Assembly: GCA_951406725.2 (NCBI GenBank)
Contig: OX597827.1
Span: 79,980,001 to 80,044,000 of the forward strand
Length of the DNA stretch: 64,000 bases
DNA from: Octopus vulgaris
Lineage: Eukaryota
Reading direction: 5' to 3'
Shown: piece by piece, positions 28,301 through 61,900 of the stretch
Position numbering within the stretch: the stretch's first letter is position 1
Layout of the letters: every line of letters starts with the position of its first letter
Made by a program: the position numbers

Positions 28301-31300
28301 TGTTTAAGGTCATTGTTTTGATAACAGCATTAACTAAATAAATTTCTGGAATATCTTCTGTGTTTCCAAATTTGTGACCATAAATTCAAAAACAAAATGC
28401 TAAATGTGTTCAAATTGATGAATCTTAGTTAAGCCCATCCTATCTTTCCTGCAGGTTGTGAAACTATACGTGTGGAATTGATTGTTGTCTACAATGCCTT
28501 CCTTTGCTCCAAGTAGAGAAGGTTCACTACAGGGATTTCACTTTGCATTGTCAGCCCAGTGTGAAGGCTGCTGCCACCAACAGAGATGCAGATACCAACC
28601 ATGTCTGTCCCAGAAGGGGGTAGACACTGAAAACATAACCAGAAGACAGTAATTCCCAGTCAGAAAAGAAGCAGCGGACGATGTCAAACAGAAGATATTG
28701 GTGACAAGAGTATTCGTTTGGCTAAAGTCATTTCAGGTAAATGGGTAAGTTGCCTGCAACAAGACACTCGTTAAAATGAGAAAAAAAAACAACAAAGAAT
28801 GCCTCAAATCTGATAGGGCTCATATAGATTGGCCCCCTTCATATAGGCAATCTTGCGGAGAAAACAGAGGAATAAAGTTGAAATGGTTCATATGTGACAG
28901 CAGTATTTATGTCAGATGTCAGCATTGATGTGAAGAGTAACTTGAAGAGAAATAATGGCAGTCTTCTTGACATCATCCAGCTAAATAATAATTAATTATC
29001 AACTATTTACAAGGGTTAAATCATATTCATTTCTACTATAGACACATGGCTATAATCTCTAATTTAGAGTATATTTAAATATACTGACCCTAGATTTTTA
29101 TTGTTTCCTTATCAATTAGTGAGGGGAGAAAGGAAGTGATCACCTCCACTAATTGCTCTAAACTGGAAAGAGTTGATGTTAAACTTGGTGACACATTCAG
29201 ATCTACAACCCCAGTAGGCTATGGTTAGATTTGAACTCAGAATATAAACAGCTGGTAAAAAATATTTCAAGCCATCCTCATCAATCAATCACTCATTCTA
29301 ATAGACCACTGACATGTACTTAGTTTTATTTTTGTCAAATACTCTCATAGTTTTCTAAAAATAATACTTACCCTGGTTGATTTCTGGAGTGTTCTGTTCA
29401 TTGTAGACATCTTCCAGTCATCTGGATAGTAATGGCTCTTCGAATGACCATATCTGTCTGATATCTCTCCTCGATTACCTGACATCACAGACACACTGTT
29501 GTTACCTTGATAGATCAACTGTCTCATCTCATTGCGACATTGGTATGCCTGTTTCTCTTCTGCTGTTCTTTCAGATGAGCTATTTCTCACATTGTTACAT
29601 CTCACAATACACAGGGTTATAGAAACCACAATAGCTATAGATACTATCACAGCTGCTACTACAATGATAATCAACAATGTCGCATCTATTGTGTTATCAC
29701 TTGGTAGGTGCACAGCTGTGAACATTGGTGACGTCTTGTTACTAACAGTCAGTGTCAAAGACACACTAGTTGTTGCTGACAGAACTGGAGTACCACTGTC
29801 TTTCACAACAAACTCAAGCTTATATGATCCGGCATCATTTTGGTAAACTGTGCGAGAGTAAGATAACACACCAGTGAACGAATCCAGTTTAAATAACTGT
29901 CTCTCGTTACCTGAAACGATTTCATACCTGAGAAAAGCATTCATGTGACTGTCTATATCAGATGCTTTCAGAACTGTGATGTCGTTCTTACTTTGCGGAT
30001 GATAGTGGACATTAAGAGTGAAAGGGTCAACACTAGGAAATGTAAAATATGGAGCATTATCATTTCTATCCAATACTTCCACTTCAACATTCACTGTGTT
30101 ATTCAGAGATGGGCTTCCATTGTCTTTCACAAAAACCTCAAACTCATAGAAATCTCTGTGTTCTCTGTCTAAAGACTGGTTTGTTGAAATAAAGCCAGAG
30201 TTGATAATCTGGAATGGCAGACGATATTGCTGTTTATTTCTCAGAGAATAAGACAATTCACCTCCCTTACCAATATCTGGGTCTGTAGCATTGATAAAGC
30301 CAATAGGGAAATTAGCTTTGTCATTCTCATAGGTAAGGAACTTGAATGTGTCTTTCGTAAAGTGTGGTTCTACATCATTCACATCTAACACTTGGATTGA
30401 CAGATCTTTATCAGTTTTCAGAGCAGGTAATCCTTTATCTTCACACGACACAGTAAAGTGATAATGTTCCTGTGTCTCTCTGTCTACTGCTTTCTTTAGA
30501 ACTATTTTATATTCCTTCGATCCCATTGACTGTAGTTTGAATGTGTCATCTTTGATATGACAGTTCACCTGTCCATTGTGTCCAACATCATTGTCAGTGA
30601 CCATCACATAAGCAATGAAACTACCAACTTTGATGTCTTCCAGAATGGTAGCTGTGTTGTGATTCTGTGTAGAAATAAAGTTCACATCAATATTTGGGGG
30701 ATTGTTTTGTTGGTTGATGACATTTACCATAACAGTTGCTATGGAACTGAGGGGAGGTTTGCCACCATCTCTGGCTTCAATGTATAATTTAAATGATTTC
30801 TTCTTTTCTAAATTAGAATGTTTAGACTGGAATATTTCCCCTGATTGCTGTTCTATCCTAAAGTTGTTCATTGACTCTTTAGATGTTAATGAACTGATAT
30901 AATATGAAACTTTACCATTCTCTCCAATATCAGAGTCTTCTGCCAACATTACAACAACTGGTCTATTCCTTTGATGGTTATTTTGTATGGAGACATTGTA
31001 TGTTTTCTCAGAGAAAATTGGTCTGTTATCATTTTCATCTTTCACAGTTATGTGCACATTTAAGACACCCTGTTTGGGTGGATTGCCTCCATCCTTAGCA
31101 ATCACTTCTATATTATAGCTATCTTTCGTCTCCCTATCTAACTTTGCTTCTAAAACGATTTCTAATGATAGCAAACTATCTGCTATCTGAAATGTGGACA
31201 AAGAAAACTGTAGGTTATTTCCCTTCAATTCGTAATTCACTAATCTGTTCTGTAATCCAACATCTTTGTCAATCGCATTGGGAATCGATTGTTTTGTACC

Positions 31301-58900: not shown

Positions 58901-61900
58901 AATGTATAATTTAAATGATTTCATTTTGTCAAATTGCGATTCTTTGGCTAAGAATATTTCTCCAGTTTTCTCATTTATAATAAAATTATCTTTTGAATCT
59001 GTTGATGTTGTTGGGCTGATATAATATGAAACTTTACCATTTTCTCCAATATCAGAGTCTTCTGCTATCATTACAACAACTGGTCTATTTCTTTGATGGT
59101 TATTTTGTATGGAGACATTGTATGTTTTCTCAGAGAAAATTGGTCTGTTATCATTTTCATCTTCCACAGTTATGTGCACATTTAAGACACCCTGTTTGGG
59201 TGGAGTTCCTCCATCCTTAGCAATCACTTCTATATTATAGCTGTCTTTCGTCTCTCTGTCTAACTTCCCTTGTAATATAATTTCAAGAAATGATACTCCG
59301 TCTGCTCTTTTGAATGTGGACAAAGAAAACTGTTGGTTATTTCCCTTCAATTCGTAATTCACTAATCTATTCTGTAATCCAACATCTTTGTCAATGGCAT
59401 TGGGAATCGATTGTTTTGTACCTTTCCCATCTGCTTCTCTAAATTCCATCTTAATTTCTTCGACAGGAAACTCTGGTTGATGGTCATTGATGTCTTCTAT
59501 AATCACCTTAATTTTCAATATCTTTATAAATTTACCTGCTTTATGAACGGCTACCTTAATTGTGTGAAAGCATTCTTTCTCAAAAGTACACAGAGACTCA
59601 GCATCCAGTGTTTGTGTGGTGTATATCTTCCCAGTGTTGGTCACATTAAACAGCTGTGTTCCCTTCTGTTGCAACTGACTGAACGATAATAATGCAGTGT
59701 CCTTTAACTGTGAATCAGCAGTAATGTCTCCTATGTTGATAACAGGACTGTTCTCTTCTTTCACATGGTAAACAATGTCTTTAGAGACAGAACAGTGAAG
59801 CAGAGACTGTAATATCCAAATCGCTATTAAGACCATCTTCATTTGTTGAATAAAATACCAGTCAATTGATCTGAAAATAAAAAAGGTACACCACTGGCAT
59901 TCAGATCATGGAAAACATCAAGAGATCAATGATATTTACTCTATTTACTCTATTAACCACATTGAAATAAATATCTTTTTATTGTATTAAATGTTTCTAT
60001 CTCTTCCTGCTTTACCTCTAGGTATTCCAATAATATTCACTATATTATTGATGATGATGAAGATGACAATGATGATAGTATAATTGTGAAATCTTTAATA
60101 AACCCTTATTAGCATTCATTATCATTTTTCAAAGGAGTGTGACTTTCTTGCTGTATGAGGAGACCATTCAGTTAGAGACAAGCAACCCAGTACATCAAAG
60201 GATGATACAGTGTCTGGCATTAAAACTATTTAAAACAGATTTAACTGAGGGACGACATTATATATTGAAAACCTGGAGAATCACCAGGAAAGGAAATACA
60301 ATAATGGTGTATTCCTCTCTATAATAAATAATGTTTCCATATTACCATATAAATGTTAAAACTCATGGAGGAATTTAAGCAAAGATTTTCAAGTAAATTA
60401 AGAAGCAGAACGTCTGTGGGTCATGGTGAATATATATATATATTTCACACAATAACTTCATATTTATCTGAGATACAAAATTTTGGGAAAAAGTTAAAAT
60501 CACCAGAGAAACAATGATCAAAAGGGTTTTCAATGAAGAGGTCATATTAAGTTAGAGTAATGACAACTGCATGATAAAATACAGAGTGACCAGAATAAAG
60601 AAAAGAAGAGACTTTCAGTCAATATTCAATTCAAATTTTGGCACAAGGCCAGTAGTTTAGGGGGGGGGGGATAAGTCAGTTACATCAACCCAAGTACTCT
60701 ACTGGTACTTATTTTATCGATCCTGAAAGGAGAAAAAGCCAAGTTGACATTGGTAGAATTTCAACTAAGAACGTAAAAACAGACAAAATGCTGTTAGGCA
60801 TTTTACCTGGTGCACGAATGGTTCTGCATGTTTGCCATCTTCTTTGCAGGAAATTCTGATCATTAACCTTCATTTGTTTGCAAATATTCTTATCATTTCA
60901 AAGCATCAGTTATGGAAATTCTTATTAAAAATATTCTTTTCTACTCTAGGCACAAGGCACGAAATTTTTGGGGAGGGGGCCAGTTGATTAGATTGCTCCC
61001 AAGAGGTGACTGGTACTTAATTTATCTTCCTCGAAAGCATGAAAAGTAAAGTCAACCTCAGCAGAATTTAGACTTAGAATGTAAAGCCATGAAATACTGC
61101 TAAGCATTTTGCCCGGTGTGCTAATGTATCTGCCAACTCATTGCCTTTCTTATAAAAACTATTGAGACGTAAAAACTGGCAAGATTGTATTCATTATATA
61201 TATGCAATGCACTTTTATTCTCTTTCATAAACAAATGACAAAAAGAGAATAAAAATACAATTACGATATTATTTAAATGAAATAACACATTTTACAATAA
61301 ATATAATTCCCTGGATGAATAAAATTTCACAGAAATATCTAATAACAGAAAAGCTCTTTTAGCAACACAGCAAATCTAAATAATACCAGATTTAATTAAA
61401 AGATATTCATTAAACAAGACCAAAATTGGACACTGTTTCAGTATGAATACAACAAACAGATTAAAACCTATAAAATTTTATATTAAATTTAGAAAGACTT
61501 AAATAATATCACAACACAATATTGATTATTTATGTTGACACTAAACCACCATCTTGTCAACTGTTCTCCCAGTTTCACTTTAATATTTTATATTAATATA
61601 ACCTATTCTTACATATAAACACAATAATGATACTTGACTCTCTCAAAACATCCTTCACAAGAAACACTCAGATTCTTTTTTTAAATACACACAATAAAGA
61701 ACATCTTCTGGTTATATATTATACATTATCAATACTGATAATAATAGGAAGATGTCTGCAAATAAGAGACAACAAACTGACTGGATTTAAATATATTTCA
61801 CTTGGAAAAAAACCATAATTAAATATTATTTCACACTTCCTAACAGCAAAATATCAATCATGAACATATAAATCTCAACAGAAAGCGTGTAACTGGCAAA

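Follow-up and report, generated by a model that had tools for sequence, protein, structure and literature searches.

Concerted evolution of a protocadherin scaffold around diverse EC2-EC3 domains in Octopus vulgaris, probably by short-tract gene conversion

The clustered protocadherins of vertebrates have six extracellular cadherin (EC) repeats, are encoded in one large exon per isoform and lie in same-strand arrays. In excerpts of PMC4978886, synonymous divergence (dS) within vertebrate clusters is highest in EC2 and EC3 and lowest in EC5 and EC6, and EC2 and EC3 "appear not to be subject of gene conversion"; the same excerpts, citing Noonan 2004, give the identity of mouse alpha isoforms as 95.9% in EC1, 69.3% in EC2, 58.5% in EC3, 85.5% in EC4, 98.0% in EC5 and 84.3% in EC6. 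Cephalopod protocadherins are described in passages of PMC9068888 as an independent expansion without shared constant exons, an independence that a first-pass annotation of the present locus had also assumed. The similarity of whole genes within cephalopod arrays has been attributed to duplication or conversion (PMC6339937 and PMC9068888, in excerpt), and the available sections of PMC13218726 and PMC9712504 mention only cephalopod protocadherin expansion and expression. In the full-text literature searched, with supplements and subscription papers lying outside, no domain-resolved dS, EC2-EC3 exemption, nested tiers of homogenisation or patch mosaic was found for cephalopods. Here, an array of this kind is described in a stretch of 64,000 nucleotides (nt) of Octopus vulgaris DNA (assembly GCA_951406725.2, contig OX597827.1, positions 79,980,001-80,044,000 of the forward strand), called the window below, to which all coordinates refer. 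The genes are labelled A, B, C and D in window order, and a fifth gene, E, is partial at the window end. EC1, EC4-EC6, the transmembrane (TM) segment and the tail have evolved in concert in these genes, probably by short-tract interlocus gene conversion that has spared, and also shuffled, three or four hypervariable patches in EC2 and EC3.

Divergence along the large exon and in its flanks

The 64-kb window contains exactly four open reading frames of at least 200 amino acids (aa), each of which lies on the minus strand and encodes a protocadherin. From ATG to GT donor each measures 2349 nt (783 codons), the four align without insertions or deletions, and their large coding exons form a same-strand tandem array with members 7-11.6 kb apart. 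The blocks listed second are those delimited by the two-rate partition described below.

29372..31720, minus strand: gene A large exon, coding part (donor G at 29371), with signal peptide, EC1-EC6, TM segment and start of the tail
41033..43381, minus strand: gene B large exon, coding part (donor G at 41032)
50542..52890, minus strand: gene C large exon, coding part (donor G at 50541)
57494..59842, minus strand: gene D large exon, coding part (donor G at 57493)
30697..31332, minus strand: gene A variable block, EC2 plus EC3 (coding nt 389-1024, aa 130-341), containing patches P1-P4
42358..42993, minus strand: gene B variable block, EC2 plus EC3
51867..52502, minus strand: gene C variable block, EC2 plus EC3
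58819..59454, minus strand: gene D variable block, EC2 plus EC3

In genes A and D, Pfam identifies a Cadherin_2 domain at aa 23-100 (E 4e-8) and five stretches of Cadherin (E 5e-73), that is, the Cadherin_2-type EC1 followed by further repeats, six in total, of a protocadherin. An AlphaFold2 model (mean predicted local distance difference test score 74) contains six beta-sandwich repeats and a single TM helix at 680-710, with low confidence beyond 710, and the translations have a hydrophobic stretch for the TM segment.

Synonymous and nonsynonymous divergence (dS and dN) were estimated by the Nei-Gojobori method over the six pairs of A-D in three parts of the exon. Only one of 130 residues varies in aa 1-130 (T/N at aa 69) and 8 of 453 vary in aa 331-783, against 57 of 200 in aa 131-330; the corresponding counts of variable nucleotides are 7 of 390, 26 of 1359 and 141 of 600. 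The silent sites follow the same division, with dS of 0.012-0.065 in the first part, 0.196-0.558 in the second and 0.019-0.042 in the third, such that silent divergence is about 10-fold (5- to 20-fold) higher in EC2-EC3 than outside. Synonymous differences are enriched in aa 131-330 in all six pairs (Fisher p 1.4e-5 to 4e-22). In the two-rate partition of highest likelihood, the variable block spans nt 389-1024 (aa 130-341) and so coincides with EC2 plus EC3, with 145 variable sites in 636 nt inside the block and 29 in 1713 nt outside; a stretch of 461 nt (nt 1336-1796) is without a difference among the four genes. By domain, identity to gene A is 99-100% in EC1, 84.5-90% in EC2, 74-92% in EC3 and 99-100% in EC4-EC6. 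Over aa 131-330, dN/dS is 0.22-0.30, and values above 1 were seen neither there nor in the patches described below, in a test that is weak owing to near-saturated silent sites and four recombining sequences. The first-pass annotation had described EC1, EC4-EC6, TM and tail as almost identical even at synonymous sites, with a single T/N difference in aa 1-130, few residue differences in aa ~331-783 and replacements clustered in aa 131-330, and all of this is borne out by the counts. Its proposal that diversity in EC2-EC3 is preserved or selected holds for preservation, but dN/dS of 0.22-0.30, with ratios of 0.29-0.51 in the patches, does not support the second half.

The sequence around the exon diverges abruptly. 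Past the donors, two of which (29371 and 57493) had been correctly placed by the annotation, similarity among A-D is lost after about 13 nt, and upstream of the ATG the alignment of all four reaches only about 45 nt, although the A-D pair aligns over 183 of 200 nt at 82%. Four pairs were aligned over the opening 430 nt of intron 1. In A-D, A-B and C-D only 11-17 nt of this proximal segment aligned, and a self-BLAST of the window returned no intron-1 match for any of the five pairs other than B-C. The B-C pair is different, with 426 nt aligned at 91.8% and a Kimura two-parameter (K2P) distance of 0.087, a value that lies between its dS in the uniform parts (0.024-0.038) and its dS in EC2-EC3 (0.52). 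The earlier statement that introns next to the exon often diverge is upheld. The duplicates appear to be old, with introns that can no longer be aligned.

40604..41032, minus strand: gene B proximal intron 1, alignable only with gene C 50111-50541

A long (AT)n microsatellite at about 49955-50045 in intron 1 of gene C is missing from the alignable intron of gene B. On the 5' side, a pyrimidine tract followed by CAG 28 nt upstream of each ATG resembles a 3' splice site on the minus strand (CAG at 31749-31751 in A, 43410-43412 in B, 52919-52921 in C and 59871-59873 in D), and the similarity of the four genes stops just upstream of this putative site. Each gene may therefore have a non-coding 5' exon, private or shared.

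The large exon, which alone served as the query of the protein search described below, does not encode the whole protein. Database proteins are about 90 residues longer than its product, and tblastn with these proteins placed the remainder in two small downstream exons. Five such pairs are present in the window, with an exon 2 of 154 nt, an exon 3 of 116 nt plus TGA and their own AG and GT sites.

27885..28038, minus strand: gene A exon 2, cytoplasmic tail, 154 nt, with AG acceptor and GT donor
27598..27716, minus strand: gene A exon 3, 116 nt plus TGA
38732..38885, minus strand: gene B exon 2
38488..38606, minus strand: gene B exon 3 and stop
48556..48709, minus strand: gene C exon 2
48279..48397, minus strand: gene C exon 3 and stop
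56092..56245, minus strand: gene D exon 2
55815..55933, minus strand: gene D exon 3 and stop
63273..63426, minus strand: gene E exon 2, with its large exon past the window end
62998..63116, minus strand: gene E exon 3 and stop

The four large exons have the vertebrate-type content (ectodomain, TM segment and proximal tail) and same-strand tandem arrangement, but vertebrate-type shared constant exons are lacking: one exon 2-exon 3 pair with a stop codon lies downstream of each large exon. Each large exon has its own exons 2 and 3, and the units are therefore complete tandem genes, not variable exons that splice to common constant exons.

These separate tail exons are themselves nearly uniform, with 2-5 differences among copies in the 154 nt of exon 2 and 0-1 in the 119 nt of exon 3. 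Non-coding intron 2 differs at only 1-10 positions in 113-158 nt, and the stretch of exon 2, intron 2 and exon 3 together has a K2P of 0.03-0.1. The shared cytoplasmic tail is evidently maintained by homogenisation of separate exons and not by splicing to constant exons. Further 3', the next 400 columns have a K2P of 0.17-0.37, except 0.03 for C-E, and are joined in the flank by a block of about 1.2 kb with a K2P of 0.005-0.04 among B, C, D and E that is diverged or unalignable in A. The downstream flanks thus form a patchwork in which the nearest relative changes by block. Homogenisation had been described as limited to particular domains, which is correct within the large exon but not for the locus as a whole: near-identity extends to the tail exons of each gene, to the intron between them and to parts of the 3' flank.

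The 3' flank of gene E is closest to that of gene C (K2P ~0.03) though the two genes are not neighbours. The flank of gene A contains a direct duplication (25421-25884 and 26698-27172; 485 aligned nt, 91.8%) and is otherwise the most diverged of the five.

Old patches and cross-species lineages

Variation in EC2-EC3 is concentrated in patches P1 (aa 131-144), P2 (aa 170-192), P3 (aa 238-261) and P4 (aa 272-307). Between patch types, the mean proportion of synonymous differences (pS) is near saturation at 0.60 in P1, 0.49 in P2 and 0.55 in P4, with mean ratios of nonsynonymous to synonymous proportions (pN/pS) of 0.51, 0.29 and 0.45; the EC2-EC3 framework has a pS of 0.19 and a pN/pS of 0.13. 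Genes of one patch type differ little, as in the A-C pair (dS 0.05-0.07 in P2 and P4). Patches are shared by A and C in P2 and P4, by B and D in P2, and by A and D as well as B and C in P3. Silent sites are near saturation between types and few differ within a type; A-D therefore look like varying assortments of a small number of old patch types.

The informative sites also change their grouping along the exon. Of 57 parsimony-informative sites, 37 support AC|BD, 17 AD|BC and 3 AB|CD, and they lie in successive blocks, AD|BC at nt 410-438, AC|BD at 447-679, AD|BC at 714-781 and AC|BD at 829-897. Groupings switch 15 times against 27.7 expected (runs test, 57 sites, 100,000 shuffles; P=5e-5), and 11 times against 23.2 expected inside the variable block alone (P=4e-5). 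Exchange has occurred within EC2-EC3, which is a mosaic and not an untouched island.

In the AlphaFold2 model, P1 corresponds to EC2 strand A up to the start of strand B, P2 to the EC2 beta4-beta5 hairpin (strands 172-180 and 183-190) and P3 to EC3 strands A/B; the first element of P4 is a helix (281-286) within the beta3-beta4 loop of EC3, and the patch runs through this helical loop and the next hairpin. According to passages of PMC5001838, the EC2 beta4-beta5 loop and the EC3 Phe-X10-Phe beta3-beta4 loop, the latter helical in alpha and gamma isoforms, make contact and confer specificity in the antiparallel dimer of vertebrates, whose non-selective hydrophobic affinity interface is EC1/EC4; promiscuous cis association has been mapped to EC6 (PMC5106212, in excerpt). 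Patches P2 and P4 would match the vertebrate specificity loops by position in the predicted fold, a lead and not a test. Among solved structures, 41 sequence relatives were found in the PDB at E ≤ 1e-30, the best matches for EC1-4 being a CELSR1 chain (8vy2, E 2.5e-87) and a delta-protocadherin (6vg1, 3.6e-87), with gamma-B4 (6e6b, 1e-79) and gamma-A9 (5szn, 4.8e-70) among the gamma-protocadherin matches. Prediction of a two-copy EC1-4 complex scored 0.15 (mark 0.32) and gave no contacts, which speaks neither for nor against binding.

The large-exon product was compared with its relatives in other species. The search scored 8000 candidates and found 882 proteins at E ≤ 1e-50; the results given here are from the best 120 of these 882. 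The nearest among these come from O. sinensis, P0001 at 88-91.5% identity and the partial P0065 at 96%, followed by Argonauta hians P0002 and P0003 (84-85%), and none of the 120 is identical to a window gene. An alignment of 41 rows (A-D, P0001-P0036 and P0065) was reduced to 35, with 13 from Octopus (including A-D) and 22 from Argonauta hians, by dropping the partial or chimeric Obim_P0030, Osin_P0036, Osin_P0065, Ovul_P0035, Ahia_P0032 and Ahia_P0034.

In EC4-6, identity has a median of 99.7% (minimum 96.2%) over 78 Octopus pairs and of 98.5% over 231 Argonauta pairs, and the 286 mixed pairs have a median of 95.2% and a maximum of 96.2%. In EC2-3, medians are about 60% within Octopus, within Argonauta and between them. 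The trees of the 35 rows differ accordingly by domain. The EC4-tail tree requires one species change, with the split at 100/100; the EC1 tree requires four, A-D and P0001 being sister to Argonauta P0002/P0003; and the EC2-3 tree requires eight, at least seven of them forced by starred branches. Cross-species groups in EC2-3 include Osin_P0009 with Ahia_P0031 (100/99), Ovul_P0027 with Ahia_P0026 (99/95) and Ahia_P0002 with A and C (98/98). Species grouping in EC4-tail together with lineages in EC2-3 that cross species is the classical signature of concerted evolution. EC4-tail is uniform across paralogues whose EC1 is only 58-74% identical to that of gene A, and EC1 is uniform only within sub-arrays; homogenisation is nested by domain, reaching in EC4-tail over a far wider set of paralogues than in EC1. 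In the subset of A-D, P0001, P0065 and Argonauta P0002/P0003, diagnostic positions divide in the same manner: EC1 has 16 that distinguish species and none that distinguish patch types, EC4-tail has 19 and none, and P2 with P4 has none of the former and four of the latter (179, 184, 277 and 281).

Three further observations concern these relatives. P0001 is without about 40 EC4 residues that are present in all window genes and P0065 ends at 444 aa; the two seem to be flawed annotations of genes in this array. Outside P1, P0001 resembles D and P0065 resembles C, and each has a P1 of another type. Across the 35 paralogues, distances in P3 track those in EC1 (aa 21-126; Spearman 0.80), a correlation that rate differences may cause, and distances in the adjacent P1 do not (0.10). 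Co-variation of P2 with P4, which would be expected to be strong if the two touched across a homodimer, was over the same paralogues (Spearman 0.51) not in clear excess of P2-P3 (0.49) or P3-P4 (0.46) and is confounded by rate differences. The coupling of P2 and P4 types in 8 of 8 closest relatives was discarded as a contact signal, being explicable by shared history.

Conversion and its competing explanations

Coalescence times vary along the unit, exchange has occurred in EC2-EC3 and the scaffold evolves in concert. Short-tract interlocus gene conversion is proposed as the agent because, within a single unit, uniform stretches 0.4-1.4 kb long are interspersed with unalignable intron and diverged EC2-EC3, and because blocks of 30-250 nt alternate inside EC2-EC3. 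Old tandem duplicates would have undergone repeated short-tract conversion, possibly aided by unequal crossing-over, that keeps EC1, EC4-EC6, TM and the tail exons nearly identical down to their silent sites. EC2-EC3 would escape this erasure, such that its patches persist as deeply diverged types, and short exchanges would reshuffle these types between paralogues. By homology with vertebrates, the patches would lie at the antiparallel EC2:EC3 contact, on which homophilic specificity depends. Selection would remove conversions that equalise two genes at EC2-EC3, or the divergence itself would block them (heteroduplex rejection), and a uniform scaffold would preserve EC1/EC4 affinity, EC5-6 cis contacts and signalling through the tail. 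Domain-restricted concerted evolution, which the first-pass annotation had suggested, is well sustained by the roughly 10-fold contrast in dS, the unalignable introns and the grouping by species in EC4-tail but not in EC2-3.

Several points weigh against this reading. In an approximately unbiased (AU) test, an Octopus-only EC2-3 clade (A-D and P0001), a group chosen after the tree was seen, was not rejected (log-likelihood difference 12.7, p=0.082), and the EC2-3 framework has eight species-diagnostic positions in the subset above. That the A/C and B/D patch types predate speciation would follow from one starred branch (98/98) and four positions. The cross-species evidence is at the protein level only, and bootstraps had not settled for the EC4-tail (correlation 0.849) and EC1 (0.975) trees. 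dN/dS is below 1 everywhere, selection for diversity being deduced and not measured. The third-position GC content (GC3), 0.31-0.34 in EC2-3 versus 0.34-0.42 elsewhere, carries at most a weak trace of GC-biased conversion. Placement of the patches at a dimer interface would depend on vertebrate structural homology and not on a model of the octopus protein. Finally, conversion is not cleanly separable from unequal crossing-over.

Unequal crossing-over probably also contributes. That it is the main agent, with homogenisation by repeated birth and death of hybrid genes in place of short-tract conversion, is unlikely. A tandem same-strand array with units spaced ~7-11.6 kb apart would be suited to it, the nearest relative differs by flank block (B-C in intron 1; C-E in the 3' block, K2P 0.03), and O. 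sinensis P0001 and P0065 resemble D and C with another P1 patch. A crossover, however, would move everything on one side of its breakpoint, whereas blocks of 30-250 nt alternate in EC2-3 and, within one unit, uniform segments of 0.4-1.4 kb are interrupted by the unalignable intron 1 and by EC2-3. Recent tandem duplication followed by fast divergence of EC2-3 only, whether by positive selection or by a raised local mutation rate and without conversion, is improbable. It would accommodate the AU result, the eight framework positions and the alignable intron retained by the B-C pair, but it fails because the uniform parts of the exon are younger than their own introns and because selection on the protein cannot raise silent divergence. 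The 5- to 20-fold higher silent divergence of EC2-3 is beyond what amino-acid selection can produce, and dN/dS is 0.2-0.5. Intron 1 cannot be aligned in the three tested pairs other than B-C and has no self-BLAST match in any of the five, and the B-C intron (K2P 0.087) is far below EC2-3 dS (0.52). Informative sites alternate in blocks, and in the wider family EC2-3 lineages cross species and EC4-tail lineages do not.

The uniform parts of old duplicates could also reflect purifying selection on silent sites with no exchange, for instance for RNA structure used in A-to-I editing, which is enriched in octopus protocadherins according to excerpts of a preprint (10.1101/714394). The EC4-6 protein is conserved between Octopus and Argonauta (median 95.2%), which agrees with such constraint. 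This explanation is nevertheless very improbable, because residues specific to a species are common to all its paralogues and because non-coding segments are uniform as well. Constraint cannot give 13 Octopus rows residues that differ from those common to 22 Argonauta rows, as the 100/100 species split of EC4-tail and its 19 species-diagnostic positions in the subset require, and intron 2 (1-10 differences in 113-158 nt) and long blocks of the 3' flank (K2P 0.005-0.04, B-E) are likewise uniform. An artefact of assembly or polishing, in which reads of paralogues were collapsed or cross-mapped and similar segments written as identical, has hardly any likelihood. The 461-nt stretch invariant in four copies could be taken for one, but the per-domain pattern recurs in proteins annotated on assemblies of O. 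sinensis, O. vulgaris and Argonauta hians, three in all besides this one, the uniform parts retain dispersed private differences (29 sites of 1713 nt vary) and the boundaries match domain and exon limits.

A more speculative extension of concerted evolution by conversion, possible but rather doubtful, is that the two-sided regime acts as an evolutionary cassette system, in which a scaffold, with EC1/EC4 serving affinity and EC5-6 cis assembly, is held identical across dozens of genes and a small set of ancient patches at the EC2:EC3 contact is moved between them. The separately encoded tail exons would then act as a "constant region" without splicing, the patches would partly be older than the split of Octopus and Argonauta, and new homophilic specificities would come from the recombination of patch types and not from point mutation.

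The locus beside known recognition systems

Of the other open frames in the window, 13 reach a length of at least 120 aa, and a Pfam scan assigned none of the 13 to a family. At 9697-9774 on the minus strand, a weak tblastn match to the end of a protocadherin tail (24-26 aa, 65-79%, E 4e-6 to 7e-5) may be the remnant of a further member's terminal exon; no large exon lies near it within the first 25 kb of the window. Three copies of an element of 190-250 nt (5702-5945, 25129-25341 and 45407-45643; 77-82% identity) lie outside the gene units and are probably an interspersed repeat.

Cephalopod arrays described earlier likewise consist of duplicates of whole genes that share a chromosome, and neighbours in them are very similar. 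With the vertebrate clustered protocadherins the octopus genes have in common the six EC repeats, the single large exon and the same-strand array. Their per-domain identities resemble those of mouse alpha isoforms, and in the predicted fold their variable elements would correspond to the EC2 beta4-beta5 and EC3 Phe-X10-Phe loops of passages of PMC5001838. The likeness to vertebrate clusters that the first-pass annotation had drawn is therefore sound for the domain pattern, as given in the excerpts of PMC4978886, but not for locus architecture, with no shared constant exons. Unlike vertebrate genes, the octopus genes have their own exons 2 and 3 and are alike by homogenisation, not by splicing. 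Two further differences are that EC1 of the octopus sub-array is as uniform as EC5-6 and that the EC2-3 patches are visibly reshuffled. Taken together, the data support the view that a vertebrate-style homogenised scaffold with diverse EC2-EC3 arose again in an independent expansion with a different locus architecture.

If the same domains are indeed homogenised, and the same kept diverse, in both clades, this would be strong comparative evidence for one shared design, with a common adhesive and cis-assembly scaffold and with EC2-EC3 as an identity code. Such a design would then be a functional requirement of cell recognition by protocadherins and not an accident of vertebrate locus structure. 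Genes A-D, nearly all of whose differences fall in three or four short patches, are natural test objects in this respect for octopus neurobiology.

Two other systems are instructive. Delta-protocadherins, one of which (6vg1) is among the two best structural sequence matches for EC1-4, share the antiparallel EC1-4 dimer with clustered protocadherins according to excerpts of PMC5001838, but they are single genes and not homogenised arrays. Dscam1 and sDscam, which are alike only in the way they work, also concentrate recognition diversity in a handful of short variable segments within an otherwise constant scaffold, and Dscam1-style variable segments are contrasted with vertebrate protocadherins in passages of PMC5001838. 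Dscam1 has an unrelated immunoglobulin (Ig) fold and its cassettes are alternative exons spliced per cell, whereas in octopus each gene carries a fixed set of patches, which recombination changes only on an evolutionary time scale. Were the cassette interpretation true, the octopus array would have arrived by convergence at a germline counterpart to the constant/variable design of vertebrate protocadherins and to the cassettes of Dscam1 alike.

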